The notes: generated by a model not told the origin, from the letters alone. Shown: positions 20,321 to 35,529, numbered from the stretch's first letter. The stretch is DNA of 64,000 bases from Puniceicoccaceae bacterium (GCA_028285755.1 JANQOQ010000008.1:193399-257398); one strand, 5' to 3'. Translations and numbers: made by a program.

Positions 20321-20439
<119 letters not shown>

Positions 20440-20523
20440 GTATTTACGGGATTTTCTTTGATTTCAGAATTTGCTCTTCAAAATGTTGAACATTCTCGAA
20501 CATTCCTGCATTTTCGTGAACTA

Positions 20524-20546
20524 AAACCAAACTTTTCACCAAACCT
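20524..20546 (+). repeat. 23-nt arm repeat AAACCAAACTTTTCACCAAACCT (left arm copy)
   Basis: Perfect direct copy of 38506-38528. It lies 85 bp inside attL, and the other copy lies 46 bp inside attR. It is a candidate arm-type integrase or Xis binding site. Confidence 0.6.
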
Positions 20547-20612
20547 TTTTAACTCAAAACACCCTCAAATCCCTTTAGGTATCAGCCTGAAGGCCATTTA
20601 AGGCAAAACCTT

Positions 20613-21320
20613 CTAAATCTTTTTAATCTTTTGTTCATCAAGGTTTTTTTCCAATATGCTTGTAAAACCTCTCCAAAATTCCTTGCTGTCTTTTTCTATT
20701 ACAGTCTCAAGTGTTAACTGAGCCTGAATTGCGTATGCCACAAATTCCTCAACTCTTGATTCCCTGCTAAGATGTTCTAGGGATTTCTTTAATTTCTGTA
20801 TTGTGAATTTTTGGGGTTTTTGGTCATGCGCAAATGATGCGTTGATATCAGAAACACACTGTTTTACGGCAGTAATTAAGGACTTTTCTCTGGATATTTC
20901 ACTTAAGAAATAGTTAGTTGAATTTACCAAATTCTGCTGTGCAACTAGAACAGCTAAGATAAATGTTGGTATGGAAACTAATAGAGTATCCGAAATATTC
21001 CATTCATTTCTATTTCCTAAATAAAGCAGAACGGGAATAGATATGCCGGCAATAATCACAAGAAAACCTGTGATGTGCACTAAAGCTTTAAAGGACTCTA
21101 ATTTGAGATTCCATGTATTTCCTGATTTTCCTGATCTCCATTTCAATAACTCCAAGATAGAAGAGAATAGCAAGCCTGACAAAAAAACCCAGGCAATCAT
21201 ATGATATACAATATCAAATGCGTTTATAGACCATTCTGGATAATCGAGCTTTTTGGAAAGCAAGAAGTTGATGAAAATTATTATAAATAGTAGTGAAGCT
21301 ATTTTTTTGGTAAGGAACAT
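20613..21320 (-). CDS. Island membrane protein (about 4 TM helices plus a charged helical C-terminal domain), unknown function
   Basis: 235-aa ORF. Hydrophobic segments are IASLLFIIIFINFLL, MIAWVFLSGLLFSSIL, ALVHITGFLVIIAGISIPVLLYL and LLVSIPTFILAVLVA, followed by a soluble tail of about 95 aa. It is co-directional with, and 63 bp downstream of, the HTH gene. Confidence 0.6.
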   Translation of the reverse strand: MFLTKKIASLLFIIIFINFLLSKKLDYPEWSINAFDIVYHMIAWVFLSGLLFSSILELLKWRSGKSGNTWNLKLESFKALVHITGFLVIIAGISIPVLLYLGNRNEWNISDTLLVSIPTFILAVLVAQQNLVNSTNYFLSEISREKSLITAVKQCVSDINASFAHDQKPQKFTIQKLKKSLEHLSRESRVEEFVAYAIQAQLTLETVIEKDSKEFWRGFTSILEKNLDEQKIKKI

Positions 21321-21383
21321 TCTATATAATTTTACTTGAAAGCTGTTGTATGATTTTTACCAAAAGACTACAACTTATATGAC

Positions 21384-21680
21384 TTAGAGATTTTTTTGAG
21401 CTAGAAATTCTATGTCTTCAAGCCTATAACGATAAGTATTGGGTAGTATCTCAACTGAACTAAGAATACCATCTTTTTTCATCTTCCAAAGCGTCCCGCG
21501 ACTTACGCCAAGCATCTTAGCAGCATCCTTTTGAGTCAGTAATAGCACTTCACGACCACCAGATGCCTTCATTGAAATCCTGCCGGCGATCAAATCTTCA
21601 AGCACCGCCTTATCAACAAAAGACAAGCTCTCATCCGTTTCACGGATTGTTCTTAGCAAGCTGATACTGGTCTTATTCAT
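21384..21680 (-). CDS. Excisionase/AlpA/MerR-type helix-turn-helix DNA-binding protein
   Basis: 98-aa ORF. LLTQKDAAKMLGVSRGTLWKMKKDGIL ... YRYRLEDIEFL is the HTH_17/excisionase-family pattern. Confidence 0.7.
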   Translation of the reverse strand: MNKTSISLLRTIRETDESLSFVDKAVLEDLIAGRISMKASGGREVLLLTQKDAAKMLGVSRGTLWKMKKDGILSSVEILPNTYRYRLEDIEFLAQKNL

Positions 21681-21901
21681 TGTTCCTCACACAGTATATG
21701 CGCGAGAAACCATCAAATATCCCAAGATTTTTTTGCAAAAAATCCATACAAGCTACCATGGCCATTAAGTATAGACTCTAATTTGTATCTTTGTTTTCTG
21801 GCGAGTGAGTCTTGTTAGAAACATTTCTTATCGATTGCGTCGATATAGCGTAATATTTCATGATATGTCTTAAAGATTTCAGTAAGTAATTAGAGTTTAC
21901 G

Positions 21902-24900
21902 ATGAAACGTCCTTTTTTTAATAAATCCATTACAGATCTGGAAGGTGCTTACAAAGACGGCTATAAAAATCCTGATCTTTTGAAGATACTTTTGGATGAG
22001 TTAAACCATCGTTCTACAAAACGATCTGACAAGCTCAAGCAGCAGATAAAAAATGCAATAAGCGAGAATAATCTACATAAGAGAGTAGACATAAAGGACG
22101 ATGTTACTTTAAAGCCCATACAAAAAGTAGAGCCAGCATCACCTGCTATACCAAGACAAGAAATCCCAAAAATTGAGAATAAGCCCGAAGATATTTTGTC
22201 GGCTTGGTCTGCTTTGGAGGTTTTGTCACCACCGACCTTTGATAAGCCAGAAAAACTGGCGGGTGGAGATAAGCTCGCTGTTGCTGATATACGCCATAAA
22301 GTCATGCCTTGGGAGAATGGAGTAGAGAGAGGCCGCAAAAATCAAAAACTCTACTATCATATTATCCTGGGCAGCATAAAAATGGATGAATCAGTTGCTG
22401 ATTTAATGAAAATCTATGCGGACAAGCGTGCTGAAAAGCCACTGGCTAAAGGTCGTGCTATTTTAGCCTCTGTCACTGTTAATAAAGAAGGCCAACCAGT
22501 TGGTGAATCTATGGTTACCATTGCTAGTTTCGGTTGGGGTGTTTCCAGGGCGTTAAAAGGTCACTTGAAGGATTTGGGAAACTGGTCTGCAACCGAGAAG
22601 GAACTCATCGAGGGTTTAGAGCCTATTCTGAACAAAACGGACGAAAATGGCGAAATAGCTCAGCTTAATTATGAAGTAATTCAAAATGCATATAATTGGC
22701 TTATCAAATCGCTTGAACTTCCTTCTCATTTAGTTTGCCCGCCCGAATTTGTACTCCGAACCTATCAGTATTATAAAAATGCTGAACCGCCAGAAGCATT
22801 GATATTGAACAGTTTTTTCCTTAATGATTTGGAAAAGGCAAAGCTTTCATTTCAAGGTAATAAGGCTACAGCGAACCTCAGGCGGTATCTAGGAGTTATT
22901 CAACCTCAATACCGACATAATTTATTGGTTGATAGTGAAGCTCTTGAGGAAACGATAGCACCCAGTTTGTTCCCAATTTCTTGTTGGTCAGGTCAAGGTC
23001 ATCATCCACTGGTTTTACTCCAGCAATCGGGTGTCAATTTAGCAGGGCAAGTCTTAGAGGATGAGGGTATCCTTGCGGTTAATGGGCCTCCTGGCACAGG
23101 CAAGACTACTTTATTACGGGATGTCGTTGCTGAGATTATAACTAAGCGCGCAAAGGCTATGAGTGCATTTGAAAACCCTTCTGAAGCATTCAAACATACA
23201 GGCAAAAAAATAAAGGCAGGAAATGGTTGGTTACATCTTTATGAGCTTCATCAATCTATACGTGGTCATGAAATACTAATTGCGTCTTCCAATAATAAAG
23301 CAGTGGAGAATGTAAGTGCTGAATTACCTGGCATTGATTCAATCGCTGATGATGTTGATTTGAGGTATTTCAAAACGATTTCCGACATACTTACGGGTAA
23401 GGATAGTTGGGGTCTCATTGCTGGAGTGCTTGGAAATTCACAGAACCGTTACGATTTTAAACAATCGTTTTGGTGGGATAAGGATTTCGGATTAGCAACC
23501 TATCTAGCGGAAGCATCAGGAACACCCCAATTTATTGAAGAGAAAGATAAAACAACACGTAAGCCTCATGTGATAAAAAATGAGAACCCACCAAAGAATG
23601 CAAATGACGCATTGCTCAGATGGAAAGCTGCCCAGCAAAAATTTAATAGCGCCTTAGATCAGGCCGAAGATGCCATCAATAAATTTGAGGTTATTAGGGT
23701 CAAAGTTAAGATCCTTTCCGCCCTAAAGGATCAAAAAAATGCAATTGCGGATTTACGATATTGGAAGTCTAAATGGCCAGGATTTTGGGCATGGCTATTT
23801 CAGCTATCACACTACCGCGAATGGAAGTCAGAATATACCAGCAGGCAAATCAAACTAAGAAAAATTGAACATCATCTTAGAAAACTTCAGAAAGATATAA
23901 ATCTTCCTACACTCAACATGGAAGCCATATCTGTTGAAATAGAACAATGCAAAAAGCGCCTTGGACTGACCATAGTTGATGAAGAATTTCATTCACTCGA
24001 CCATGATGTGAAACAAGGATTGTCGCCATGGCTTGATAATGAAACTCATAAGTTGCGTGAAAAAGTGTTTATTGAAGCAATGAAACTCCACAAGACGTTT
24101 ATTGATAGCGCAGCAAAGCCAATACGGCATAATTTGGGCGTGCTTATGAATGTTTGGGATGGAAAGTCATTACGAGAAAACAATGATCTTTTGCCGGATT
24201 TATGGGCATCCCTTTTTTTGATCGTTCCGGCTCTTTCAACAACGTTTGCTTCTGTAGATCGTATGATTGGCAAATTGCCAGCTGACTCTCTAGGGTGGCT
24301 TTTAATTGATGAAGCTGGACAGGCATTGCCTCAGGCTTCTGTGGGTGCGATAATGCGAACAAAACGCGCTTTCATCGTTGGTGATCCAATTCAAATTGAG
24401 CCTATAGTTGCATTGCCCGACACTCTTACAGAGTCAATTTGTCGTCAGTTTGGTATTGATTCAGATGATTATAATGCACCAACAGCCTCAACTCAAACAC
24501 TTGCCGATACTGCCACGCCCTACATGGCTGAATTTGCAAGCCAAGGTAGCAGCCGGACAGTGGGCATACCGCTTCTTGTCCATCGACGCTGTAGAGAGCC
24601 CATGTTTGGTATATCTAATTCGATTGCCTATGAAAATTTGATGATAAACAAAAAGGTCGCTAAGACATCTGATATTGAGAATTGTCTAGGACCTTCACAA
24701 TGGTTCCATATAGAGGGGGCTGCGAGGGATAAATGGAGCAAGGAAGAAGGACAAATGGTTTTGTCATTATTAAGCCAACTCAAAGATGCGGATGTTTATC
24801 CAGATCTTTACATTGTTACCCCATTTGTTGTTGTGCAAGATAACCTACGAAGAATTATCCGGGATAAAGGCATTCTTAAAGGCTGGGTAGATAATCCGAA

Positions 24901-25138
24901 ATGGGTTTATGAAAGAATTGGCACCGTTCATACTGTTCAAGGTCGTGAAGCTGAAGCTGTTATTTTCGTTTTAGGTGCTCCAGAATTAAAACAACAGGGT
25001 GCGCGAGGCTGGGCTGGAGGCAGGCCAAATTTACTTAATGTGGCGGTCACACGTGCTAAAGAGGTTTTATACGTAATCGGCAATAGAGAACTCTGGAAAA
25101 ACTCAGGAACTTTTAAGCAAGTCGATAGTCGCCTTTAG
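21902..25138 (+). CDS. Superfamily-1 helicase of the Upf1/DNA2-like (AAA_11/AAA_12) type with an unassigned N-terminal region
   Basis: 1078-aa ORF. Motifs seen: Walker A VNGPPGTGKTT (aa 393-403), Ia ILIASSNNKAVENV, II LLIDEAGQ (aa 800-807), III FIVGDPIQIEPI, V/VI GTVHTVQGREAEAVIFVLG and NVAVTRAKEVLYVIGN. There is an insertion of about 330 aa between Ia and II, and the first 380 aa or so have no motif I recognise. Confidence 0.9.
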   Translation: MKRPFFNKSITDLEGAYKDGYKNPDLLKILLDELNHRSTKRSDKLKQQIKNAISENNLHKRVDIKDDVTLKPIQKVEPASPAIPRQEIPKIENKPEDILSAWSALEVLSPPTFDKPEKLAGGDKLAVADIRHKVMPWENGVERGRKNQKLYYHIILGSIKMDESVADLMKIYADKRAEKPLAKGRAILASVTVNKEGQPVGESMVTIASFGWGVSRALKGHLKDLGNWSATEKELIEGLEPILNKTDENGEIAQLNYEVIQNAYNWLIKSLELPSHLVCPPEFVLRTYQYYKNAEPPEALILNSFFLNDLEKAKLSFQGNKATANLRRYLGVIQPQYRHNLLVDSEALEETIAPSLFPISCWSGQGHHPLVLLQQSGVNLAGQVLEDEGILAVNGPPGTGKTTLLRDVVAEIITKRAKAMSAFENPSEAFKHTGKKIKAGNGWLHLYELHQSIRGHEILIASSNNKAVENVSAELPGIDSIADDVDLRYFKTISDILTGKDSWGLIAGVLGNSQNRYDFKQSFWWDKDFGLATYLAEASGTPQFIEEKDKTTRKPHVIKNENPPKNANDALLRWKAAQQKFNSALDQAEDAINKFEVIRVKVKILSALKDQKNAIADLRYWKSKWPGFWAWLFQLSHYREWKSEYTSRQIKLRKIEHHLRKLQKDINLPTLNMEAISVEIEQCKKRLGLTIVDEEFHSLDHDVKQGLSPWLDNETHKLREKVFIEAMKLHKTFIDSAAKPIRHNLGVLMNVWDGKSLRENNDLLPDLWASLFLIVPALSTTFASVDRMIGKLPADSLGWLLIDEAGQALPQASVGAIMRTKRAFIVGDPIQIEPIVALPDTLTESICRQFGIDSDDYNAPTASTQTLADTATPYMAEFASQGSSRTVGIPLLVHRRCREPMFGISNSIAYENLMINKKVAKTSDIENCLGPSQWFHIEGAARDKWSKEEGQMVLSLLSQLKDADVYPDLYIVTPFVVVQDNLRRIIRDKGILKGWVDNPKWVYERIGTVHTVQGREAEAVIFVLGAPELKQQGARGWAGGRPNLLNVAVTRAKEVLYVIGNRELWKNSGTFKQVDSRL

Positions 25139-25148
25139 TAAGTATTGA

Positions 25149-25199
25149 CCACAAGTTCGTTCGGCTTGGCTGTTTGGGGGCCGCCAACCGAACTTGTGG
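25149..25199. other. Long imperfect GC-rich hairpin directly after the helicase stop
   Basis: CCACAAGTTCG ... CGAACTTGTGG forms an 11-bp outer stem, with an inner TTGGC/GCCAA helix. There is no T-run, so this is not a canonical intrinsic terminator. Confidence 0.45.
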
Positions 25200-25399
25200 A
25201 CAATACAAATAGGCATAATCTTATGGTAAAAGTGCGAGACACAATACCCTAAGGCCTCGCGGCCTTAGGAAAACAAGAAGTCTTCCAAGGGTGCTCCAAG
25301 CGCATGACAAGTAGCTGACAACCCCTTGGCAACGTCCTTCCAAGTTAAAAAACAAGGGGAAAACAAGGGGTTTTGTGCGAATGCTACGCATATACTTGT

Positions 25400-25759
25400 A
25401 TGGACACATTTTTTGAAAAGCACAAACGCCCTCACACGAGCATCCTTGAAGAGTGGTGGGACGAGATCGAAGCCATGCGCACCCAGGAGTGGCCTTATCG
25501 TAGGATTGCCGACTGGCTTAGGAACAATAAGGAAATTACAATCAGTGCCGAGGCCGTCCGGCAATTTTGCAAGGTTCGTGACATTTCCAAAGGCAATTCT
25601 GAAAGACAACCTAAAGCAAGACCTTCAAGAACACCGACTAAGCCGCTGAAACAAAACCGTTATCCTAAACCCAAAACTCCCGTTAAACGAATTTTTGAAT
25701 ACGATGATACCGAGCCCATCGATATTCATAATAAGAAATCTGCGAAATCAGGCTTTTAA
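25400..25759 (+). CDS. Small HTH-like protein with a basic low-complexity tail (transposase-N-terminal/regulator-like)
   Basis: Read from Met10 of the ORF: MDTFFEKHKRPHTSILEEWWDEIEAMRTQEWPYRRIADWLRNNKEITISAEAVRQFCKVR. YRRIADWL..N..ITIS..AV..F resembles a helix-turn-helix. The assignment is weak. Confidence 0.4.
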   Translation: MDTFFEKHKRPHTSILEEWWDEIEAMRTQEWPYRRIADWLRNNKEITISAEAVRQFCKVRDISKGNSERQPKARPSRTPTKPLKQNRYPKPKTPVKRIFEYDDTEPIDIHNKKSAKSGF

Positions 25760-25791
25760 ACCGTTTCGCAAGAGATGTAGACGATCTATAA

Positions 25792-26190
25792 CTATTTTGT
25801 GATGAGTATTTCGGCCAGCTGGGTAAGGCTTACAATTGTAACGCCCTGGACAGTTCTTCGATACAAATGACCAAAATCGCGCTTGTCTCCGGTAACCAGG
25901 TAATCGCATTTTCCGGCAATTGCTGAACATAGGATTGGAGCATCTTTTTCAACCAATTCTACCTTTAGCTCAAAACTGCTGGTTCCTACCCATTCTACGT
26001 TTTCACAGAGTTTATCAAACCCTTTTTGCCATTGAGGACGTTTAGCAACAATATTGCGGCTCGCTTCTTCCCGTGCGTAATCGCTGGAAACGGCGGTAGC
26101 TTTCTCCAATATCAGTGCAACAAGCCTTTCAACCTGGCTGTTGGAATTTGCACCCGCAAACAGGACATTGGCATCAAGAAAAATCCTCAT
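25792..26190 (-). CDS. PIN-domain toxin (VapC-like)
   Basis: 132-aa ORF with MRIFLDANVLFAG (N-terminal acidic D), ..VTGDKRDF (C-terminal acidic motif) and PIN-size length. The start overlaps the antitoxin stop (ATGA). Confidence 0.85.
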   Translation of the reverse strand: MRIFLDANVLFAGANSNSQVERLVALILEKATAVSSDYAREEASRNIVAKRPQWQKGFDKLCENVEWVGTSSFELKVELVEKDAPILCSAIAGKCDYLVTGDKRDFGHLYRRTVQGVTIVSLTQLAEILITK

Positions 26191-26423
26191 CAGGGATTCT
26201 TCTGATTCAGGATTGCCTCAAGAGATTCTTCTTCACTTAAGAATTCCGCAATTCTCTCTTCTGAGTAGGTCTCAACCGGCAAGCTTATAGAGGGGCGTAA
26301 TAATATCCCCTCATCCGTGGTCTCCATGATGAGCTGGTCATTTTGCTTCATACCAAAGCTTTTTCTGACCTTTGAAGGGATCGTAATAGCGCCCCGGCGG
26401 CCTATGGTGATTTTTTCAAACAT
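26190..26423 (-). CDS. AbrB/MazE/SpoVT-type antitoxin
   Basis: 77-aa ORF. ITIGRRGAITIPSKVRKSFGMKQNDQLIMETTDEGILLRP is the swapped-hairpin AbrB-like motif. It is translationally coupled to the PIN gene. Confidence 0.85.
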   Translation of the reverse strand: MFEKITIGRRGAITIPSKVRKSFGMKQNDQLIMETTDEGILLRPSISLPVETYSEERIAEFLSEEESLEAILNQKNP

Positions 26424-26442
26424 AATTACAGTATAGCCGAAT

Positions 26443-26458
26443 TTCCGTCATTCCGTCA
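26443..26458. promoter_or_regulatory. Tandem TTCCGTCA x2 just upstream of the antitoxin start (candidate operator)
   Basis: TTCCGTCATTCCGTCA lies 20-35 nt upstream of the antitoxin ATG (26423, minus strand). It is flanked by GCCGAA / TTCGGC inverted half-sites. Confidence 0.35.
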
Positions 26459-26736
26459 ACATTTTCGGCAATTTTAAAAAACAAGCCAAAGATATGACGC
26501 TTTCCCTAAGCTTGAGCTGACTCAATACAAATAAAATTTCCCTTTTCATATCAGGTTGGGCTATACTCGCTCTTGCCAGGTGCAAATTCACCTGGACGGG
26601 CTTAACAACTCAAGCACACATTCGGTCTTATGGGCCGGATGGCGAAGAAATAAGGCCAATCCGGCTGAATACTTCGCGCAGTGCGTGTGCGCTGTTGTTA
26701 ACGTCCGGTCTACCAATCGACCAAGGAGTAAGACCG

Positions 26737-26877
26737 ATGCAAAATACCGTATTCAAAAGTGACATTTTAAAAGACCTGGCCTTTTACAAAGCCATAAAAT
26801 TCTTTGCCGTTTCTAACGACAATTTCAGTGAATCAGTATCCCCCGCAGAGATCGAAAGCGATAACAAACAAGTTTGA
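26737..26877 (+). CDS. Small ORF (46 aa) with a strong Shine-Dalgarno, unknown function
   Basis: AAGGAG lies 8 nt upstream of the ATG at 26737. The product is MQNTVFKSDILKDLAFYKAIKFFAVSNDNFSESVSPAEIESDNKQV. It is preceded by a GC-richer hairpin-rich leader of about 180 nt. Confidence 0.35.
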   Translation: MQNTVFKSDILKDLAFYKAIKFFAVSNDNFSESVSPAEIESDNKQV

Positions 26878-27174
26878 TTATCCCCTTCGATACTCGACCT
26901 ATAAACTCTGGCAGACCTTGAGCAATCAAGGACTGCCTTCTTTTTAGGAGCTGCGCCCCTCGCCCAGTAAAGCCGTGTCCCCAATCTTCATTCGTGCCTC
27001 ATTGTAGATTGGGTGATCCCCCTCGGCGTTGACTGCGCACACCCGCTGTATGGGTCGGCTGGTCATGGGTTGCTTGAGCAACCCTTTTTCCATGAAAGCA
27101 TAAAGGAAGCGGCAGGGCATTTTGCGATTAACGCGCTTAAGAAAAGCAGGGAATACGCCGATTATTGATAGCGA

Positions 27175-27201
27175 TGAAACAGATTCGGGGATTCTGTTTC
27201 A
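27175..27201. repeat. Lox-like recombination-site candidate A (TGAAACAGATTCGGGGATTCTGTTTCA)
   Basis: 10-nt inverted arms TGAAACAGA(T)/(A)TCTGTTTCA flank an asymmetric G-rich centre. It is 26/27 identical to the reverse complement of 30939-30965 and lies 8 nt beyond the SIR2 stop codon. Confidence 0.6.
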
Positions 27202-27209
27202 TGTCAACT

Positions 27210-30200
27210 TTATTGAGACATAACCTTTGGATTCACTGCAAGAGCACCTTCCGAATTAAACTGAAGCTCACATTTCACATCCGATTGCTCCTTCAAGATA
27301 GTGTCACCCCATTTAGAGCCTGGGCATATAACATTCATTGGTATACCATCAGTTTGTATCCAAGCTGCTCCTCGTGCGAGATGAACAATCTTTCCTCGCA
27401 CATAAAGAGGTTTGGATGGATCTGTTTTATCTGCTGGAACAAAATGCACTTCTCTTCTTTCACCAATTGAAAAACTTTGTTTTTTACTTTCTCCAACTGT
27501 ATCACGATATTTTGAGAAGTTTTTCTCAATAAAATACAAGCCAGCGAGTATCGAAATAAATCGTGGATCCTTTGTCCCTTGGTATGCGGCAAGATTCAAC
27601 ACTGCAATTGCCTCCGAATTGGTAAGATTTAACCCCAAAATTGATTTTGCATACTCCAGCGCTAGTCGAAAATCATCAGGTGTATCTGTAATAGCTGGCT
27701 CAACTACCTTCTTTGCCTGAGCGTATTCACCATTCTTATTGTAAACTCTCGCAAGAAGATACCTAGACAGATGTGTACTATGCGAAGATTCAACGGCCCT
27801 AAGTAGAGAATCAATCTGCTTTGGGTTGTCCCCAATGTAGTGAGAAATGTCAGAAGAAAGAATCCAAAGCGCTTCTTTGTTCCTTGCAGAATTTATACCT
27901 TCTGTGATTTCTCTTTCAGCCTTAGCAAGATACTCTGCTGACTCAGATACATCGTGGTCCTCTATGAATTTCGCCCACCTGAAAAAGATGTTTGCAAGTC
28001 CATGTATACAATACTCGTCATTGGCTTTTATTTTCAATCCATTCCTAAAAGAAACCTCACTTTGTATTAAGTGTTTTCTTGCGATATCTATACTTTCACT
28101 ATTAAAAGCAAGATCAGATAGAATTTCACCTTTTGTATGGTGAAGTATCCTTTTCGGATTTATTTCGAGCGCCTTATCAATCTGTCCTAATGCAAGCGAA
28201 AACCTTTTCTCCCGAGAGAACATTCGAGCATAATGCTGGAACACATACATATTTTTAGGATCTTTTCTGCATGCTGTTTCAAAAAACTTAGTTTTCCCCT
28301 CCAAACTACTTATACTATCTACGAGAGAGTCTGTGCGAATGAAGCTCTCAAAAGCATCCCTATCAGATTTGTGAGTCAAATTTAGAAAACCTAGAGCTTT
28401 TTGTAATATACTTTCTTGTAATAAAGACTCTCCACAACGTTCCCATACGATCTGAGCAATCTTTTTGTGCCTAGGCCTAACACCATAGATTCCACGACTT
28501 ACATTGATATCTTCGTCTACGATAACTCCATCCAAATACTGATTCAAGATTGGATGCAGCTCAGTCTCCTTGAGATTTAACAGTTGAGCCAATAAACTAG
28601 TTCTGAGAATATTCCCATTTTGATAGAAGCAACACACAGACAGGTAAATCTCTTGAGCACAGGCATCGCTTATTCCACGATACTCATCTTCTAAAATAGC
28701 ATCAAAAGATCTGCCTTCAGTCGTTTCTCGCATTGTTACCAGAAGTTCTTGCCCTAAATTATTTTTAACCGCAGCACGTTGCAATTCAGGAGAAAGATCA
28801 TTTAACACACCTAAGCTAGAGTGTTTTTTCAAAAAACCTAGCAGCAACCCGATCTCTCGATCAGAAAGAATCTCAATTTCAAATTCCTTGCCACCGGGAC
28901 TTGTAGCAAGAAATTGATTCCATTCATTTTTTCTGCTGCCAAGAACAAAAAGAACCTGTCTTTTGTTCTCTCTAAATTTATGGAGTATATTCGCAATTCG
29001 AGTTTTAAATCTCGCAGCATTGTCTACAATAAATACAGCAGTTCCGTTGGTAGCGCTAAGAGCAAACTCAATATCCCCATCCAAGAAGTTTCCCACTTCT
29101 TTCAGATAGAAAATGGGGGCGGCATTTTCTTTTATTAGACGAACAGATAAAGCCATCAATAATGACGTCATGCCATACCCAGCAGGTGCTAGAACTGTTA
29201 GCACACTCGGACGACCCATTGGTGAGGTAATATAATCCAAGCATTCATTATACAAATCTTCCTCTAAATCACGTTCAAAATAGTCGCCTGTTCCTATCAA
29301 TGACCAACTGGGCTTATCTCCCTTTAAAAAGTTATCCAAGTTTCTTTTTTCTTCAAAAGGGGCCTGATTTACATAAACCCAAGAGGTGAAAAGTCTTAAA
29401 AATGGAGCAATGTTTTCATTTGCTAATGAGTGAAAATCTGGTGGAATTTCGGCTTTAAGTTTTTCCAGGTCAAAATCACTGATAGAATCTGAGAGTTGGC
29501 TTTTAAGTGATGAAACAAAATCAGTCAGGTTTTGAGGAATAGTTTCAATTCCATCAGACTTTAGAAGCATTTCTTCCAAGGTGTTTGTTGATGGAGAAAC
29601 CCTGAATGCACGTGGAAGTTCGGCGGGGTGATACTGATCTTTCAGATCTCTCAAAAGTGTTTCCCAGTTAGGATCACTGTTGGAATACCCAACATACAAG
29701 ACAGTGGAAACGGTAGAATCCATTTTCAACAAATCGAAGAGCATTTCTCTTTGTGATTTGAAGAGGTGGTAATCGTTTTTTGTGATGACAATGTTTGTTA
29801 GCCTCTCTCCATAGAGAATACCATGAAGATAAATTACTGGCATCTCCACATTACGATGGTAGTCTTTTACTTCTCTTGATAGCGTAAAAAAAACTGGCTT
29901 CTTTTTGATATCACGAATCTGCTCATAAGCGCGTTTGATAGATTCATCGTAATTGGTTGTGTATACAGATCTCCACTGTAACGACAACAACCATTTCAAA
30001 TCATCATCGGGCTCTGCATCACGAAATCTAGTTGCTAAATAACTCTCTAAAGAATCTCGATCTGTTTGCATTTCAACAACACTCGAAACGAGAATAAGAT
30101 CATCATTTCGTTCTATTGAAAATCTATCACAAAGCTCGTGCGCCAACTCTTTTCCAGTCGGGAGTCTTTTTCCGCCAGAAGTTACATTAAATCCAATTCC

Positions 30201-30269
30201 GGCTCCTAAAAATAAAACACATTTTCCGCTTTCAATTGAGCTTACTAGGCTAAGAGGTATTTCTGGCAT
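27210..30269 (-). CDS. SIR2-domain (SIR2_2-type, predicted NADase) protein fused to a degenerate P-loop NTPase-like module, TPR-like repeats and a C-terminal cold-shock-like beta-barrel
   Basis: 1019-aa ORF. SIR2_2 motifs: KCVLFLGAGIG (aa 16-25), VYTTNYD (N106), VIYLHG (H149), LYVGYSNSDPNW. A Walker-A-like LAPAGYGMTS (aa 360-369) has Met367 where Lys is expected, and a Walker-B-like AVFIVDNA follows. Helical repeats cover aa 655-925 (e.g. LALGQIDKALEINPKR, YLLARVYNKNGEYAQAKKVVEPAI). The tail GKIVHLARGAAWIQTDGIPMNVICPGSKWGDTILKEQSDVKCELQFNSEGALAVN resembles a CSD/OB fold. Confidence 0.85.
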   Translation of the reverse strand: MPEIPLSLVSSIESGKCVLFLGAGIGFNVTSGGKRLPTGKELAHELCDRFSIERNDDLILVSSVVEMQTDRDSLESYLATRFRDAEPDDDLKWLLSLQWRSVYTTNYDESIKRAYEQIRDIKKKPVFFTLSREVKDYHRNVEMPVIYLHGILYGERLTNIVITKNDYHLFKSQREMLFDLLKMDSTVSTVLYVGYSNSDPNWETLLRDLKDQYHPAELPRAFRVSPSTNTLEEMLLKSDGIETIPQNLTDFVSSLKSQLSDSISDFDLEKLKAEIPPDFHSLANENIAPFLRLFTSWVYVNQAPFEEKRNLDNFLKGDKPSWSLIGTGDYFERDLEEDLYNECLDYITSPMGRPSVLTVLAPAGYGMTSLLMALSVRLIKENAAPIFYLKEVGNFLDGDIEFALSATNGTAVFIVDNAARFKTRIANILHKFRENKRQVLFVLGSRKNEWNQFLATSPGGKEFEIEILSDREIGLLLGFLKKHSSLGVLNDLSPELQRAAVKNNLGQELLVTMRETTEGRSFDAILEDEYRGISDACAQEIYLSVCCFYQNGNILRTSLLAQLLNLKETELHPILNQYLDGVIVDEDINVSRGIYGVRPRHKKIAQIVWERCGESLLQESILQKALGFLNLTHKSDRDAFESFIRTDSLVDSISSLEGKTKFFETACRKDPKNMYVFQHYARMFSREKRFSLALGQIDKALEINPKRILHHTKGEILSDLAFNSESIDIARKHLIQSEVSFRNGLKIKANDEYCIHGLANIFFRWAKFIEDHDVSESAEYLAKAEREITEGINSARNKEALWILSSDISHYIGDNPKQIDSLLRAVESSHSTHLSRYLLARVYNKNGEYAQAKKVVEPAITDTPDDFRLALEYAKSILGLNLTNSEAIAVLNLAAYQGTKDPRFISILAGLYFIEKNFSKYRDTVGESKKQSFSIGERREVHFVPADKTDPSKPLYVRGKIVHLARGAAWIQTDGIPMNVICPGSKWGDTILKEQSDVKCELQFNSEGALAVNPKVMSQ

Positions 30270-30364
30270 AATTGCTACAAGAGCAATCTATTCCCTTTAA
30301 CCAGATTTAATCAAGAACACATTAGCTATAAGTTCCCAAGGATTATTCCCGGTCAGAAGGTGTT

Positions 30365-30913
30365 TTAATTGGAAAGCCAGCTTCTCTTTGCGAGTTCTTT
30401 TTCTTCAGGGCCAACAACATCCAAATATAACGATGTGGTTTCCAGTCTTTTATGACCCAACCACCTTTGCACCGTTGTAATTGGAACCTCATTCTTGATA
30501 TATGAAACTGCGTATGAGTGTCGTAGACCTTTAGGGCATGCTTTTATACCCGTAAGCTTCTCAGATACCATTATTCTTTTTATTGTCCTCCATCCCGTAG
30601 TCCTTGAGAAGCTCCACAAATATTGAGCATTGCGATTTAATTTAGCGTAAGCCCCCAATAATTTACTTGGCACGGGAATAGGACGAAAAATACCTTTTTC
30701 TCGTTGTTTGAGTGTCTCAAAAACAATCAATTTTTCAGAGAAATCGACTCTATCCCAGGTCAGGTTTAAAGCTTCGGAGATGCGACACCCTGTGTAAAAC
30801 AGTGTCAGGCAAAAGGCTCTTTTCGATAGGTCAGGCTCTTGCATGACGGCTTTGTAGAAGGCCTGTCTTTCGGCTTCGTTTAGGTATTTTCGCTGACCGT
30901 TTCTATCATACAT
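30365..30913 (-). CDS. Small catalytic-domain-only tyrosine recombinase (FimB/FimE-like size and layout)
   Basis: Catalytic residues are readable: YTGCRISEAL (R), GLRHSYAV (H-x-x-R), WLGHKRLETT (H) and SLYLD (Y). Starting at Met32 (MYDRNGQRKYLNEAERQAFY) gives 182 aa, collinear with 200-aa invertases. The ORF-track start at 31006 would read through the palindromic site B. Confidence 0.85.
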   Translation of the reverse strand: MYDRNGQRKYLNEAERQAFYKAVMQEPDLSKRAFCLTLFYTGCRISEALNLTWDRVDFSEKLIVFETLKQREKGIFRPIPVPSKLLGAYAKLNRNAQYLWSFSRTTGWRTIKRIMVSEKLTGIKACPKGLRHSYAVSYIKNEVPITTVQRWLGHKRLETTSLYLDVVGPEEKELAKRSWLSN

Positions 30914-30938
30914 TTGATTATTTTCATTTCGATAATAC

Positions 30939-30965
30939 TGAAACAGAATCCCCGATTCTGTTTCA
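30939..30965. repeat. Lox-like recombination-site candidate B (TGAAACAGAATCCCCGATTCTGTTTCA)
   Basis: Perfect 11-nt inverted arms TGAAACAGAAT/ATTCTGTTTCA flank a CCCCG centre. It is an inverted copy of site A and lies 25 nt upstream of the Met32 start of the small recombinase. Confidence 0.6.
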
Positions 30966-30968
30966 GCT

Positions 30969-30997
30969 ATGATAACATCCATAATTGGAGCAGTAAA
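30969..30997 (-). promoter_or_regulatory. Sigma70-like promoter candidate firing into site B and the recombinase-SIR2 unit
   Basis: The minus strand reads TTTACT (30997-30992), a 17-nt spacer, then TATCAT (30974-30969), ending 2 nt before site B. This is pattern match only, and the host promoter consensus is unknown. Confidence 0.25.
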
Positions 30998-31409
30998 TCG
31001 GGTCACTTGTGTATGCCTTGTTGCAGTTCTAAGCGTGGATGGCCTGGCGAAAAATTCGCATAAGAGCGCTTATGAGCTTGCCAATGAATATTCAAAGACG
31101 GGCGAAGGTGTAGGCATCATAATTCGTATTGGTAAAGTTGATATGGCACTTTTCAAGGAGCGCGGAATTTTGCCAGATTTAGTAGGTCAAAAACTTGAGG
31201 AGGTTTTAACCGAGTATAGTGTTATCAGTAAATCTTTCTGGGAGCTTGGAAACGGAGACTATACAGGAGTTGCTTTTGATCTAGGCCCGTTAACCTATAA
31301 AGATGATATTTCGGGAAAGTCCGTGTTTTCTATTAGTGGAGCAATTGCAGCTTCACCAAGGGTCGCTCAAAAGTTCAAGAACTTGCAGAAGTTCAATAAC
31401 AAATACTAG
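30969..31409 (+). CDS. Hypothetical protein (true start uncertain, probably internal)
   Basis: 146-aa ORF. The C-terminal 110 aa or so have ordinary globular composition (..SAYELANEYSKTGEGVGIIIRIGKVDMALFKERGILPDLVGQKLEEVL..). The first 40 aa or so overlap the recombinase upstream region and look non-native. Confidence 0.35.
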   Translation: MITSIIGAVNRVTCVCLVAVLSVDGLAKNSHKSAYELANEYSKTGEGVGIIIRIGKVDMALFKERGILPDLVGQKLEEVLTEYSVISKSFWELGNGDYTGVAFDLGPLTYKDDISGKSVFSISGAIAASPRVAQKFKNLQKFNNKY

Positions 31410-31422
31410 CGATACGCTACGC

Positions 31423-32190
31423 CTAGAAATTCATTCCTAATGCATCCAAAGCATTTTTTGTAGATACTGTGTCTAGCTGATTGTTTTTTTGATCCTTGCT
31501 GACTTCTTCGGTAATGCCAGATTCATTAAGTAAAGCAAAGTCAAATACCTCCAATTCTTGTTTGGCTTCTGCCAGGTCTATTACACCTTTTTGGTATCTT
31601 GCCTCAATGTCCTTTATTCTGTTTCGCTGATCTTGGGTGTCCTCGAGTTCTTTTTGAAGGATTTCATAGCGATCAGACTTATCTATAACGTTTTCCTTGG
31701 CTGCAATTATTTCTTCGCCCAGCAGCTTAGATAAGGCCACATCTGTCAAATTTTCATCAATTTGCATACCTTGCTTTTCGAGTAATGTGATAGCAGCTTC
31801 ACGATCTAATGTCCCATTGCCATCGTCATAGGATTTCAGAAGTTTTTCTGCATCGTCCACAAATTCATTTAGCTGGTTTAGCTCGGTTTCGACTGCTTCC
31901 ATTTGCGTTAATAAATTACTGATGCGATCATCAAGAACTGCTAGTTGGTCTTCAATTTGGCTTAATAGGTGATCGAGCAGTGAGCTTTTTTTGTTCTTAC
32001 CGTCCTTTTTATCATCTAGGTCTGGATTTCTTATGGTGGCACTAATAGTGCTTGAAAAGATGCTTTGGTCGGGATCAATCGCGCCACTCAAAACCTTAAC
32101 ATAGTCCTGCTTTTCCTCTTTATCGGAAATGCCTAAATAGTCTGTCGGTTTTGACTCTTTCATGTTTAATCCCTGTCTTGGTTTTCCCAT
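31423..32190 (-). CDS. Acidic coiled-coil protein, unknown function
   Basis: 255-aa ORF with long heptad-like stretches (LLDHLLSQIEDQLAVLDDRISNLLTQMEAVETELNQLNEFVDDAEKLL; EILQKELEDTQDQRNRIKDIEARYQKG). An alternative start is Met10 at 32163. Confidence 0.55.
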   Translation of the reverse strand: MGKPRQGLNMKESKPTDYLGISDKEEKQDYVKVLSGAIDPDQSIFSSTISATIRNPDLDDKKDGKNKKSSLLDHLLSQIEDQLAVLDDRISNLLTQMEAVETELNQLNEFVDDAEKLLKSYDDGNGTLDREAAITLLEKQGMQIDENLTDVALSKLLGEEIIAAKENVIDKSDRYEILQKELEDTQDQRNRIKDIEARYQKGVIDLAEAKQELEVFDFALLNESGITEEVSKDQKNNQLDTVSTKNALDALGMNF

Positions 32191-32313
32191 TATATTTCCA
32201 TATCATTAAAATGACGTTAATGCCTTTAGCATATTGGGGTATGCAGTTTAAGCTTTCGTTAAGGCTGTTCGTGTTGAACTAGCAGGAGATAAGAAACTAT
32301 TGGGGACGTAGCT

Positions 32314-32628
32314 ATGACTACAGAGAAACATTTTACAATCAAGAGCTTGGCTGAATATTGGGACTGTTCAGAGGGCTTTATTCGTGCGCGGATTGCGGAC
32401 GGGAGTTTACAGCATTTGAAAATGGGTGGTATGTATCGTATAAAGAAGGAATCCGTCCAAAGATATGAGGAGCACTGTTCATGCCGAGAGCAACCCGATG
32501 CGTTCCAGAATTCCGAATTCGCAATCTCCCAGGTAAGCCCAATCTTTACCTTTGCTGGTCAGAGAACCGCCGTTCAAAACGGATTTCAACGGGCACAGAT
32601 GATCCAGTCGCAGCGCAGCAATTCCTAG
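32314..32628 (+). CDS. Excisionase-type HTH protein (Xis-like)
   Basis: FTIKSLAEYWDCSEGFIRARIADGSLQHLKMGGMYRIKKESVQRYEE follows the HTH_17/excisionase pattern in the first 55 aa or so. The 3' 148 nt overlap the integrase gene in another frame. Confidence 0.7.
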   Translation: MTTEKHFTIKSLAEYWDCSEGFIRARIADGSLQHLKMGGMYRIKKESVQRYEEHCSCREQPDAFQNSEFAISQVSPIFTFAGQRTAVQNGFQRAQMIQSQRSNS

Positions 32629-33527
32629 CTGACTTTATCAATGGTTGGAATGCTCCACCTCCCAAAGATGTTATTACCTGTAATGAAATTATAGATCGGT
32701 ATCTTGAGCACAAGAGAAGTCACTATGAGAAAGACATTCGGTCTCAGCAAACATACGCGGGTTTGGTTTTTTGCCTAAAACCGATTAGAGAGTATTTTGG
32801 TAATCTTACAGCTAGTAGTCTAAACCGACAGCACTCCCGAAACTTCATTGAGCTTCAACGAAACAAAAATCTATCAGACGCGAGCATTCGCAAACAGCTA
32901 TCGATTTTTACGGCAGCACTTAATTTTGCAAAAGTGGAGCTTTGGATTGACGATTTTGCACCTCTCGAAAAGCCCAAGCCCCCCAGACCAAGGGATAAAT
33001 GGCTAAAACCTGATGAAGTAAAGCGATTCCTAGATGAATGTCATACATACCATATAAAGCTATTTACCCTATTGGCTTTGCATACGCTATCGAGGAAAGC
33101 TGCGATTCTCGACTTAAAATGGGAGCAGGTAGATTTTGAAAGTCGACTCATTGATTTTAACCCACCTGAAAGGGTAGATACAATCAAAAGGCGGGTGCCT
33201 GTAAGGATGAATGATACACTTTGTGGTGCATTGCTAGAGGCCAAAGATTTTTCTCAAACCGAATACGTTATCGAGTATAACGCTAAGCCTGTTTTGGATA
33301 ATAAGAAGGCTTTTGCTCGTGTGGGGGTAAGGGCTAAACTTAAATGGGTCACCCCTCACGTTTTAAGGCATACTGGAGCGACTTTACTTGCTAAGCAAGG
33401 GGTGCCTATGTGGGAAATTGCAGGCATCATGGGTGACCGTCTGGCGACTGTAGAGAAGCATTATGCGAAGCACCATCCCGACTATCTGAAAAACGCAGTC
33501 AATGCGTTGGATAATCTCTATGGATAA
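32481..33527 (+). CDS. Tyrosine-type integrase (second integration module)
   Basis: 348-aa ORF. It has an N-terminal arm-binding-like LYLCWSENRRSKRISTGTDD and a SAM-like core-binding region. Catalytic residues: TLSRKAAILDL (R), HVLRHTGATLL (H-x-x-R), GDRLATVEKHYAK (Y). Confidence 0.9.
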   Translation: MPRATRCVPEFRIRNLPGKPNLYLCWSENRRSKRISTGTDDPVAAQQFLADFINGWNAPPPKDVITCNEIIDRYLEHKRSHYEKDIRSQQTYAGLVFCLKPIREYFGNLTASSLNRQHSRNFIELQRNKNLSDASIRKQLSIFTAALNFAKVELWIDDFAPLEKPKPPRPRDKWLKPDEVKRFLDECHTYHIKLFTLLALHTLSRKAAILDLKWEQVDFESRLIDFNPPERVDTIKRRVPVRMNDTLCGALLEAKDFSQTEYVIEYNAKPVLDNKKAFARVGVRAKLKWVTPHVLRHTGATLLAKQGVPMWEIAGIMGDRLATVEKHYAKHHPDYLKNAVNALDNLYG

Positions 33528-33584
33528 GTGCGCACCAGTGAGCACATATATAATTTGGTTAAACTTCTAAGTATTTGAAAAGAT

Positions 33585-33629
33585 TGGTGGACCCTAGCGG
33601 GATCGAACCGCTGACCTCTTCGCTGCCAG
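33585..33629 (-). other. Orphan tRNA-Ala(GGC)-like 3' fragment (anticodon loop to CCA), an att-type sequence next to the second integrase
   Basis: The minus strand reads CTGGCAG CGAAG AGGTC AGCGG TTCGATC CCGCT AGGGTCC A CCA. It is near-identical in the variable and T arms to E. coli tRNA-Ala(GGC) as I remember it (GAGGTCAGCGGTTCGATCCCGCT). No complementary 5' half lies upstream, so it is not a functional tRNA. Confidence 0.8.
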
Positions 33630-33720
33630 TTTTCAGGTTAGTAGCGCACGCATTGGATTTCTGCGATTCAAAGTATTTGTGACAGTCAAGAATTAGCACC
33701 CATTCATACGTCTTTCAGTG

Positions 33721-33749
33721 ATAAGTGCGCACGTGTGCGCACATCTTAT
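33721..33749. promoter_or_regulatory. Imperfect palindrome ATAAGTGCGCAC-GT-GTGCGCACATCTTAT (operator or oriT/nic-region candidate)
   Basis: It contains two copies of the self-complementary GTGCGCAC. The 13-mer GATAAGTGCGCAC (33720-33732) also occurs at 33523-33535, overlapping the integrase stop codon, so the two copies flank the tRNA-Ala fragment. Confidence 0.4.
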
Positions 33750-33880
33750 GGAATATCCAAGTCTGTTATTTTATATTCATTTCAATAACTTATATGAATA
33801 CATGCGCAACCATTGGTCATAATTTGTTAAGAATATAGCCTTATGGTTGTAATCGTAAGTGTGTAGCATTTGCGGGGTAG

Positions 33881-33913
33881 CAAGATGTGTTTTTGTAAAC
33901 AAAAACCATCTTG
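33881..33913. promoter_or_regulatory. Inverted repeat about 105 nt upstream of mobC (oriT candidate)
   Basis: CAAGATG(T)GTTTTTG-TAAA-CAAAAACCATCTTG has 14 paired positions with a 1-nt bulge. It is followed by further short hairpins (GGGG-TGAGTAT-CCCC, GGTGC-TTT-GCACC). Confidence 0.4.
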
Positions 33914-34018
33914 GCAAGGGGTGAGTATCCCCCCGTTGCATCCCCTTTGGGCGGTGCTTTGCACCTTTTAATCACGCCGCCGGACAAAATCCCAGTGGCA
34001 AACGTAAAGGAATCTGCC

Positions 34019-34366
34019 ATGGCAAGACCCCGTTTACCGGAGAATAGCCAAAAAAGGACAAAGCAGGTGATATTCCGTTTAACAGAGGCTGAATATCACC
34101 AGTTGTCCGTTATGGCGGCGCGTGCTGGCTTTAGTGTAAACACTTTCGCCAGGTATGTAGCGTTGGCGCGAGCCAAGCGCATTATTGTGAAGACCCATGC
34201 CCGGAGCGATCCAGCCCTTATCAAGAGACTGGAACGCATCGGGCATAATTTGAATCAGCTAACGCGCTACTCGCATTGTTCGGGGCAAGTCCCTTCACAA
34301 ATCCATGAACTGTGCGCACACATTCATGACATTGTTCATCGTGACATTGAGGAGATAAACCTATAA
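34019..34366 (+). CDS. mobC: MobC-family relaxosome accessory protein (ribbon-helix-helix)
   Basis: KQVIFRLTEAEYHQLSVMAARAGFSVNTFARYVAL ... RIGHNLNQLTR matches the MobC pattern. The start is set at the internal ATG with AAGGA upstream (34019); the ORF-track start at 33911 is a TTG with non-native-looking sequence. Confidence 0.8.
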   Translation: MARPRLPENSQKRTKQVIFRLTEAEYHQLSVMAARAGFSVNTFARYVALARAKRIIVKTHARSDPALIKRLERIGHNLNQLTRYSHCSGQVPSQIHELCAHIHDIVHRDIEEINL

Positions 34367-35529
34367 TGAATCCGCATATCACCAGTGGAGGCAGTAGCTT
34401 TAGGGGTGCCTATCTTTACTATATGCACGACAAGGGAGCAAATACGCGAAATCGCATTGCCTGGACGCATACCGAGAATATGATGACGAATGACCCTGAT
34501 CTTGCTTGGAAAGTGATGAGCTATACGGCTATGGGTCAGGATCGTTTGAAGGAAGCGTCCGGCCAGAAACGAACAGGCCGCAAAACGGAAAAGCCAGTTT
34601 TGGCATATTCGCTTTCATGGCACCCTGAACAAAATCCCAATAAAGACCACATGCTTGAAGTCGCGCAGAGGTCTATCAAGATGCTTGGGTTGTCAGACCA
34701 TGAGGCGATTATTATCGCTCATCAGGACACCCCACACAAACACGTGCATGTGATTGTTAATCGGGTGCATCCGATAACGGGTTTGGTCGCAAACGGCTCA
34801 AATTCCAAACGCAAGCTTTCAGGGTTCGCTTTGGAATATGCACACGAGCATGGGTTGAACTATGCGCCGCAGCGTCAGCAGAACGCGCGTGAAAGAGAAA
34901 ACTCTTCGCACAATCGTAAAATCCAAGATGAATGGGATTCATCGCATGACGGTGAAAGCCTGATTTTCGCTTTAGAGCAAAACGGCTTTCGTTTAGCCCA
35001 TGGTAACAAGCGTCTGGTTGTGGTTGATGCATCGGGTAAAGTTCATAATCCCGTTCGCCACATCAGAGGGATTAATGCGAAAGACTTTCGTGAACGCTTA
35101 GGGTCAGAGATTTACAATGCCTTGCCTCAAATTGATGAGGTCGTTGCTGAAATTAAAGAAAAGCCGTCCAATTCTCACGAGCAATTGGAAGCCAGTTATC
35201 GTAAATACATTGAGGAGCTTAAACGCTTACATCAGATCAAAGAACGCCAGGCTGAAATCAAAGAGCTACAGAAAAAAATAAAAAATGCCCGCTGGTGGCA
35301 TAAGCTTCTGGGGATCACCCGCCGACACACGAATGATTTAAACAAAGCAAGACAGGATTACTGCAACGTCAATGAGCGTATCAAAACCCAAGTGCGTATC
35401 TGGAAAAAGGCTAAGCTTGATGCCCTTGGCAAATCAAATAACCCAACCAAGAGACCAGCAAAGCGACATATCACCAATCAAGGCAAAAGCATTGGCATGG
35501 ATACGAGTAATTCGGGTCTTAGCCTGTGA
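34366..35529 (+). CDS. Relaxase / mobilization nuclease (MobA/VirD2 family)
   Basis: 387-aa ORF. It has N-terminal SFRGAYLYYMHDKG (candidate catalytic Tyr) and the histidine triad IIIAHQDTPHKHVHVIVNRVHP. The start overlaps the mobC stop (ATAATG). Confidence 0.9.
   Translation: MNPHITSGGSSFRGAYLYYMHDKGANTRNRIAWTHTENMMTNDPDLAWKVMSYTAMGQDRLKEASGQKRTGRKTEKPVLAYSLSWHPEQNPNKDHMLEVAQRSIKMLGLSDHEAIIIAHQDTPHKHVHVIVNRVHPITGLVANGSNSKRKLSGFALEYAHEHGLNYAPQRQQNARERENSSHNRKIQDEWDSSHDGESLIFALEQNGFRLAHGNKRLVVVDASGKVHNPVRHIRGINAKDFRERLGSEIYNALPQIDEVVAEIKEKPSNSHEQLEASYRKYIEELKRLHQIKERQAEIKELQKKIKNARWWHKLLGITRRHTNDLNKARQDYCNVNERIKTQVRIWKKAKLDALGKSNNPTKRPAKRHITNQGKSIGMDTSNSGLSL

Follow-up and report, generated by a model that had tools for sequence, protein, structure and literature searches.

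Two short palindromic sequences in a bacterial genome enclose a small recombinase gene together with a complete putative defence gene, and the question is whether this arrangement marks a segment of DNA that can invert itself. The DNA analysed, called the window below, is a stretch of 64,000 nucleotides (nt) from a Puniceicoccaceae bacterium (JANQOQ010000008.1), and coordinates are positions in that whole stretch unless a comparison locus (L number) is named. The two palindromes, sites A and B, bound a segment of 3.79 kb that contains a gene for a tyrosine recombinase and a gene for a protein of SIR2-STAND type (Table 1). In the most likely reading, to which we assign a probability of about 0.6, the segment is a self-inverting cassette of recombinase and putative defence gene whose invertase belongs to an undescribed family. 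No description of the recombinase family or of its layout was found in the literature searched, which included the 2021 tyrosine-recombinase classification and the site sequences.

For a self-inverting cassette, A and B would be the core recombination sites of the small Xer-like recombinase encoded between them. A dimer of the recombinase would bind each site on its two 11-nt arms, and strand exchange would take place in the asymmetric 5-nt centre; because the two centres are reverse complements of each other, a crossover between the sites would lead to inversion and not to excision of the 3.79 kb segment. The flipped junctions predicted are J1, TTGATAGCGA-TGAAACAGATTCGGGGATTCTGTTTCA-GTATTATCGAAATGAAAATAATCAAATGTATGATAG, and J2, GGTTATGTCTCAATAAAGTTGACA-TGAAACAGAATCCCCGATTCTGTTTCA-GCTATGATAACATCC. 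Both the inversion and the change of expression resulting from it are what we infer from a comparison of sequences.

Paired sites with matching centres

The following loci were compared with the window: 80 loci from species genomes, 120 metagenome stretches with the site pattern, and contigs of the closest relatives. The recombinase family has 413 clusters at 50% identity (profile search, E <= 1e-30) and is present at more than 450 loci in species-representative genomes. Its site is TGAAMCAGAAT-N5-ATTCTGKTTCA (consensus TGAAcCAGAAT-N5-ATTCTGgTTCA), and the sites in the window have the same arm consensus. Homologues with such sites belong to Verrucomicrobia, Acidobacteria, Proteobacteria and other groups, and in most elements with the recombinase inside, the near site precedes the start codon by about 21-25 nt, with a ribosome-binding site between them. 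For example, in a Verrucomicrobiales metagenome-assembled genome (MAG; L002), TGAAACAAAATCATTTCGTTTTGTTTCA precedes the start of a 58%-identical recombinase by 21 nt; its exact reverse complement follows 1.3 kb downstream, and between the two sites lie the recombinase and one open reading frame (ORF). A search of 185,579 species, each represented by one genome, gave no match to the exact-arm pattern, and the family site pattern had none in 2.9 million viral contigs.

The centres provide the main evidence. Among 38 unique elements with the recombinase inside (class I, defined below), 25 distinct centres are found, and the 5-nt centres are exact reverse complements of each other within 37 elements. 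Mismatches between partner sites affect 44 of 836 positions in the arms and 1 of 189 in the centres (Fisher p = 0.0014). Arms conserved across phyla, combined with centres that vary between elements and match between partners, are the signature expected of tyrosine-recombinase strand exchange, which requires such matching. Since the centres match, the two sites of a pair should recombine with each other, which is the main argument of this study, and since the sites are inverted, the product should be an inversion. The proposal of the sequence-only reading that the palindromes act as core sites of the enclosed recombinase therefore gains support from homologues with the same arms, inverted pairs and pairwise-matched centres. 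Its proposal that the sites delimit a recombinase-plus-cargo unit is borne out by the recurrence of the same architecture with homologous recombinases.

In a census of site pairs with matching centres, 61 of 63 were inverted, and the two pairs counted as direct have mismatched centres and are probably unrelated neighbours. Class I consists of 43 pairs with the recombinase inside; most of the segments are 657-701 bp long without other content, and about twelve pairs carry cargo in segments of 1.3-6.4 kb. In class II (13 pairs), a segment of 154-197 bp (about 157 bp) lies directly upstream of the recombinase, which is a more distant family member (42-47% identity). In five further inverted pairs no recombinase was seen. 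The family would thus consist of compact invertible modules, with the invertase either inside its own segment, with or without defence-type cargo, or beside a segment of about 157 bp.

The sites of the window were re-read from the sequence, and the positions and sequences first described are exact. Site A agrees with the reverse complement of site B at 26 of 27 positions (1 mismatch) and with site B read directly at 23 of 27 (85%), so the inverted orientation is correct. The arm-centre-arm layout also stands; in place of the arms of 10-11 nt around a C4/G4 centre first proposed, the best symmetric reading is 11-5-11, or alternatively a 12-nt stem with a 3-nt loop. The pentamer ATAGC noted immediately outside both sites is indeed common to the two flanks and abuts site B, but it is 2 nt off site A and is therefore offset. 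As first described, 8 nt separate site A from the stop codon of the SIR2 gene (27210-27212), the recombinase ATG at 30913 follows site B after 25 nt, and the gene content between the sites is exactly two co-directional genes on the minus strand.

Palindromic and intergenic sites also call to mind dispersed repeats of the repetitive extragenic palindrome (REP) type, or chance hairpins unrelated to the recombinase. When up to 3 mismatches were allowed, A and B were the sole copies in the 64 kb, where shuffled sequences gave an expectation of 0.00, and in different phyla the relatives of these sites accompany relatives of the recombinase, in most loci at a distance of about 21-25 nt; together with the lack of matches in species genomes and viral contigs, this makes the explanation extremely improbable. 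A REP or bacterial interspersed mosaic element was rejected, as was a terminator, given only two copies, no U-tract after site A and no terminator-like call at either site.

Table 1. Positions of the sites, genes and intervals in the 64,000-nt window
Feature	Position	Strand	Description	Family or database
Site A	27175-27201	none	TGAAACAGATTCGGGGATTCTGTTTCA; 11-nt arm, 5-nt centre CGGGG (+ strand), 11-nt arm; 1 nt of one arm unlike site B; far (right-hand) site along the recombinase reading direction	
Cargo gene	27210-30269	-	1019 amino acids; SIR2_2, nSTAND NTPase 5 and TPR (NLR-like, SIR2 effector)	Pfam
Spacer	30270-30364	-	95 nt from recombinase stop to SIR2 start	
Recombinase gene	30365-30913	-	Small tyrosine recombinase, 182 amino acids; catalytic domain only, Xer-like	PF00589
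Leader	30914-30938	-	25 nt from site B to recombinase ATG	
Site B	30939-30965	none	TGAAACAGAATCCCCGATTCTGTTTCA; perfect palindrome but for the centre, CCCCG on the + strand; near (left-hand) site	
Divergent orphan ORF	30969-31409	+	146 amino acids; starts 3 nt outside site B; not in the site-bounded segment	
tRNA-Met gene	20321-20397			

Three other loci have unusual sites. In L194:65-125 (= L124:1805-1865), two family-type sites are only 11 nt apart with different centres, TGCCA and ACGGT, which may represent either two adjoining elements or a switch with several sites. The element of L070, from a Verrucomicrobiia MAG, is surrounded by an inverted repeat of 162 nt with 98% identity (8276-8437 and 9833-9994), which consists of the site and 130 nt of outer flank as an inverted duplicate at both ends; its recombinase is frameshifted. 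The site pair of L178, which lacks a recombinase, has no convincing genes and was set aside.

The recombinase, its cargo and the surrounding island

The recombinase gives a match to PF00589 of 70.2 bits (cut-off 27.1) over residues 41-197 of the 213-residue ORF. The start at Met32 proposed by the sequence-only reading was confirmed with about 1950 database homologues, nearly all of which are 180-190 amino acids (aa) long (about 185 aa) and align from that Met. Because the alignment begins at the Met of 30913, the product is taken as 182 aa, and the GTG start at 31006, which would read through site B, was dropped, the homologue lengths also speaking against it. In a 37-sequence family alignment, R44, R131, H154 and Y163 are invariant, in agreement with the catalytic-residue pattern R...HxxR...H/W...Y of the superfamily. 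At the His position of HxxR, at least 90% of the 37 aligned members have Lys (K128, in PKGLRH), and K128 aligns with the H of "PHVLRH" in XerD; the type IB topoisomerases of poxviruses likewise have Lys at this position.

Alignment with the XerA-like (4a8e), XerD and XerH structures is limited to their C-terminal catalytic domain. In the XerA-like structure (292 aa) the aligned part is residues 113-275, and the core-binding domain is absent from the recombinase. No curated NCBIfam cut-off was reached: the scores are 76.5 bits for XerA (cut-off 220), 56 and 58 bits for XerC and XerD (335 and 330), 26.1 and 33.3 bits for the FimB/FimE-type models NF007370 and NF007371 (221 and 222), and 40.5 bits for the integron-integrase model TIGR02249 (265). 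The likeness to FimB/FimE pointed out earlier thus holds for the length of about 200 aa and the lack of an N-terminal core-binding domain, but in sequence the protein is nearer to Xer catalytic domains.

The cargo protein has an N-terminal SIR2 domain (SIR2_2, 64.8 bits, residues 101-244), a central STAND NTPase (nSTAND_NTPase5, 94.3 bits, residues 313-452) and a C-terminal repeat sensor (TPR_14, from about residue 660 to 918), which is the architecture of SIR2-STAND (NLR-like) proteins. PADLOC matches (ThsA, Dsr2, LmuA) are limited to the SIR2 domain, and the domain architecture suggests a role in defence.

Most of the cargo in other elements of the family resembles defence genes or toxins. 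In L216, which among the cargo-bearing relatives is the closest (60% identity), the recombinase, a DUF3010 protein and a PD-T4-6/mad6-like Ser/Thr kinase are located between sites with arms identical to those of the window and centres AGGGG/CCCGT. Other elements carry a TIR_2 protein (L010), a D12 methylase with a DndB/DpdB-like protein (L009), a pair of VapBC type consisting of an AbrB-like ORF, read from the translation only, and a PIN protein (L012), DUF2971 (L013), MEDS (L070), a transporter (L066), and RES with an AAA ATPase and an S8 peptidase (L015, where the site pairing is less certain). Several further cargo genes are without assigned identity, and most cargo genes are co-directional with the recombinase.

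This variety of cargo raises an alternative, in which A and B mark the ends of a recombinase-plus-cargo cassette that is mobile or exchangeable and is swapped between replicons by two crossovers, inversion being a side reaction, in analogy to engineered recombinase-mediated cassette exchange or to what has been proposed for the Acinetobacter pdif modules. Elements with the same centre CACGC do differ in content: they hold the recombinase only (L084, L104, L120), TIR (L010), the D12 methylase and DndB/DpdB-like genes (L009), or another insert (L164). In a pair of Bryobacterales loci, homology begins exactly at the outer site and stops just past the recombinase stop. The modules are located in mobilisable islands beside variable defence genes, and the GC content of the cassette, 0.37-0.39, is slightly under the 0.40-0.45 of the flanks. 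On the other hand, the flanks of the Verrucomicrobial elements are co-adapted and stand in a constant relation to them, comprising the conserved left-hand gene and, at opposite ends, an A-rich leader and a T-run, and therefore fit poorly with a freely hopping unit. Neither an empty docking pair nor an identical element in two contexts was found among the loci compared, the 14 contigs of P0085 representing one context; paralogues that share a MAG have diverged, and their centres are mostly different; and inverted sites cannot yield simple excision or integration. We therefore consider cassette exchange unlikely as the primary role of the sites and retain the self-inverting cassette as the better account.

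The surroundings of the segment (20321-25138 and 32314-35529) constitute an integrative mobilisable defence island, which is probably inserted at the tRNA gene of Table 1. Its genes encode a 1078-aa MkoC-like SF1 helicase, a MazE/PIN pair, an integrase, an HTH_17 excisionase-like protein, a NikA/MobC protein and a relaxase. A megablast search of 25100-33600 against plasmids, in which an empty site or a related island was sought, found nothing. The stop codon of the helicase gene is directly followed by a probable terminator, a hairpin (25142-25206) whose 24-nt arms, 88% complementary, enclose a loop of 17 nt. Just past the far site of L005, a second copy of the 3' end of the island's large integrase gene is present (L005:10724-10972 versus L009:8234-8486), which hints at a tandem insertion of islands into an integrase gene.

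More distant homologues (41-47% identity) on small Acetobacter and Komagataeibacter plasmids (L220, L221, L222) adjoin parA-like, CopG-family and repA genes and are placed as a multimer-resolution gene would be. In L222, the operon is preceded by a palindrome of another kind, TCTTCATAAGCC-TTCC-GGCTTATGAAGA, which has a 12-4-12 layout (25817-25844). No family-type site was found near the homologues on Acetobacteraceae plasmids, so they say little on the element in the window.

Transcription and orientation of the segment

The sequence-only reading suggested that inversion could uncouple the SIR2 gene from an outside promoter. The proposed promoter, TTTACT-17-TATCAT (30997 to 30969, minus strand), exists as a match, but its status as a promoter is unsupported, since promoter-like matches around the segment are at chance level (10 found, 10.0 expected from shuffles). 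Similarly, a second proposed promoter, TTGATT-18-TAGATT, does lie in the 95-nt spacer ahead of SIR2 but is missing from the promoter-like sites listed by the scan. We found no evidence for the uncoupling, and ON/OFF switching of SIR2 by inversion is plausible but unsupported. The 25-nt leader leaves no room for a promoter inside the segment, and transcription of the recombinase is therefore expected to start outside and to run through site B. A flip would consequently disconnect both the recombinase and SIR2, so that in the window copy inversion would at most part this unit from whatever transcribes across site B.

Outside site B, the 146-aa ORF occupies the place of a conserved gene for a protein of 74-89 aa in the Verrucomicrobial relatives, and any promoter it has would have to lie across site B. 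Among 5.8 billion proteins its only homologue was itself, and it had no match in Pfam, PADLOC or NCBIfam. At the inner side of the far site, TTGACA abuts the site both in the window (27202-27207) and in L216 (2567-2572) and may serve as a -35 element or extend the site; no usable -10 hexamer for it is visible in either element.

Many relatives have features that resemble a switch. A TTGNNN-N16-18-TANNNT motif facing outward and ending 3-14 nt before the far site is found in 25 of 38 class I elements, versus 0.48 in shuffles and 0 at the near end, and it remains beside the far site in elements with cargo. A T-run follows the far site in 24 of 42 elements and the near site in 1 of 42, and the outer side of the near site is A-rich. 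In the assembled orientation, the hairpin and U-tract would end the outward transcript. The conserved divergent gene for the 74-89-aa protein starts about 30 nt outside the near site, and inversion in these relatives would redirect the outward promoter from the hairpin and U-tract to this small gene. Such a redirection would be a coherent design, as judged from the arrangement of motifs and genes. The directions of the right-flank genes are mixed (14 plus, 18 minus), and the outward promoter therefore does not generally drive the genes on the right.

A conserved convergent gene pair is always found to the left of the Verrucomicrobial elements (L002:9169-9927, L005:9218-9918, L006:2822-3542, L084:5144-5970). 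The first gene encodes a protein of 155-191 aa with a hydrophobic N-terminal stretch, as judged by eye from the sequence, and the second the Cys-containing protein of 74-89 aa (MKIDKIIGENG...); a Pfam scan of one left-hand protein of 74 aa gave no match.

Hairpins and T-runs could also serve regulation without recombination, in which case site B would be an autorepression operator, and the hairpin of site A would stabilise the 3' end of the transcript or terminate it. In favour of this, any upstream promoter would be separated from the recombinase ATG by site B, both sites fold stably (-13.2 kcal/mol for A and -19.2 kcal/mol for B; z-scores -4.6 and -4.8), the far site with its T-run in relatives resembles an intrinsic terminator, and every assembled locus is in one orientation. 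Binding or folding, however, needs no reverse-complement unpaired centres, yet 37 of 38 elements have them with centres differing between elements. Moreover, site A has no U-tract, neither site was called terminator-like, and four invariant residues at catalytic positions are unexpected in a mere repressor. A purely regulatory role is thus improbable, more so than cassette exchange.

Several observations nevertheless weigh against a self-inverting cassette. With promoter matches at chance level, a regulatory effect on SIR2 is unproven; a flip would cut the recombinase off from its own transcription, which would make the return flip hard to explain; and the window element, like L216, is without the outward promoter motif and the T-run of its relatives. 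Flipped alleles were found in 0 of 39 loci carrying the conserved left-hand gene, the recombinase being beside that gene in all of them, among them ten samples of one population. The alignable class II loci, which have the short segment, likewise all share one orientation. The gene order of the window is also that of L001, a Logan contig from an independent run, and the same locus is present in SRR20820731. When the flanks of all sites with a common centre were compared, only cases with one conserved flank and no flipped allele were found; the GAGGC group, examined closely, resolves into near ends and far ends of elements. Since consensus assemblies can hide a minority orientation, the lack of flipped alleles sets a bound on the frequency of inversion and does not exclude it.

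If the self-inverting cassette is correct, it would provide compact and self-contained phase variation of a complete, potentially toxic, NAD-consuming immune gene. Recombinases beside defence genes are usually dismissed as mobile-element remnants, and here they would represent a new and common family of minimal tyrosine invertases. More tentatively, and with somewhat less than even odds, there may be a widespread class of autonomous invertons with the recombinase inside, in which an Xer-derived invertase of about 185 aa with Lys for His flips its own segment, the segment has repeatedly captured SIR2-STAND, TIR, kinase, DndB/DpdB-like, VapBC and RES genes, and in many lineages an outward promoter alternates between a terminator and a conserved small gene; mobilisable islands would then have phase variation of whole defence effectors built in. 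The 25 natural 5-nt centres on 27-bp sites, if orthogonal, would also be a small recombinase tool kit.

Comparison with known recombination systems

The Xer proteins are the best relatives of the catalytic domain in both sequence and structure, and dif (11-6-11) likewise has 11-nt arms around a short centre. The present recombinase differs from them in having no core-binding domain, half the length and Lys for the His of HxxR, and its sites differ from dif in their palindromic arms, their 5-nt centre and their occurrence as inverted pairs around or next to the gene of the enzyme itself, not as one site per replicon. Membership in the Xer dimer-resolution group was rejected on the basis of scores under the cut-offs, the single domain and the paired sites. 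The Acinetobacter pdif modules are also cargo units between oppositely oriented Xer sites, but contain no recombinase. An integron (IntI, attI/attC) was rejected because TIGR02249 is under its cut-off and there are two near-perfect inverted palindromes and no array.

FimB and FimE, which act on fimS, are tyrosine recombinases of a similar size (about 185-200 aa) without an N-terminal core-binding domain, and the class II relatives have the classic short-inverton layout. In contrast to the 9-bp repeats of that system, the sites here are full 11-5-11 palindromes, and the recombinase and a complete effector gene are inside the segment; membership in the FimB/E family was rejected with scores far under the NCBIfam cut-offs.

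FLP/FRT and Cre/loxP are simple tyrosine recombinase systems with arm-spacer-arm sites, whose orientation is set only by the asymmetric spacer, as would be the case here. In the 2-micron plasmid, the FLP gene is located in a unique region that is flanked by inverted target sites and is itself inverted. These enzymes are unrelated in sequence to the present family beyond the superfamily, their sites are 13-8-13, and they are used for plasmid copy-number amplification, whereas the present element is a cassette with immune cargo in a chromosomal island.

In Hin/hix, the switch for flagellar phase variation in Salmonella, and in its relatives Gin, Cin and Pin, the segment between short inverted palindromic sites holds the invertase gene and an outward promoter. 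Hin is a serine recombinase that requires an enhancer and Fis, while the enzyme here is a tyrosine recombinase (PF00589), and the copy in the window has a cargo gene of 3 kb inside and no outward promoter. With inverted palindromic boundaries, the invertase inside and, in many relatives, an outward promoter by the far site, Hin/hix is nevertheless the known system closest in logic to the family described here.

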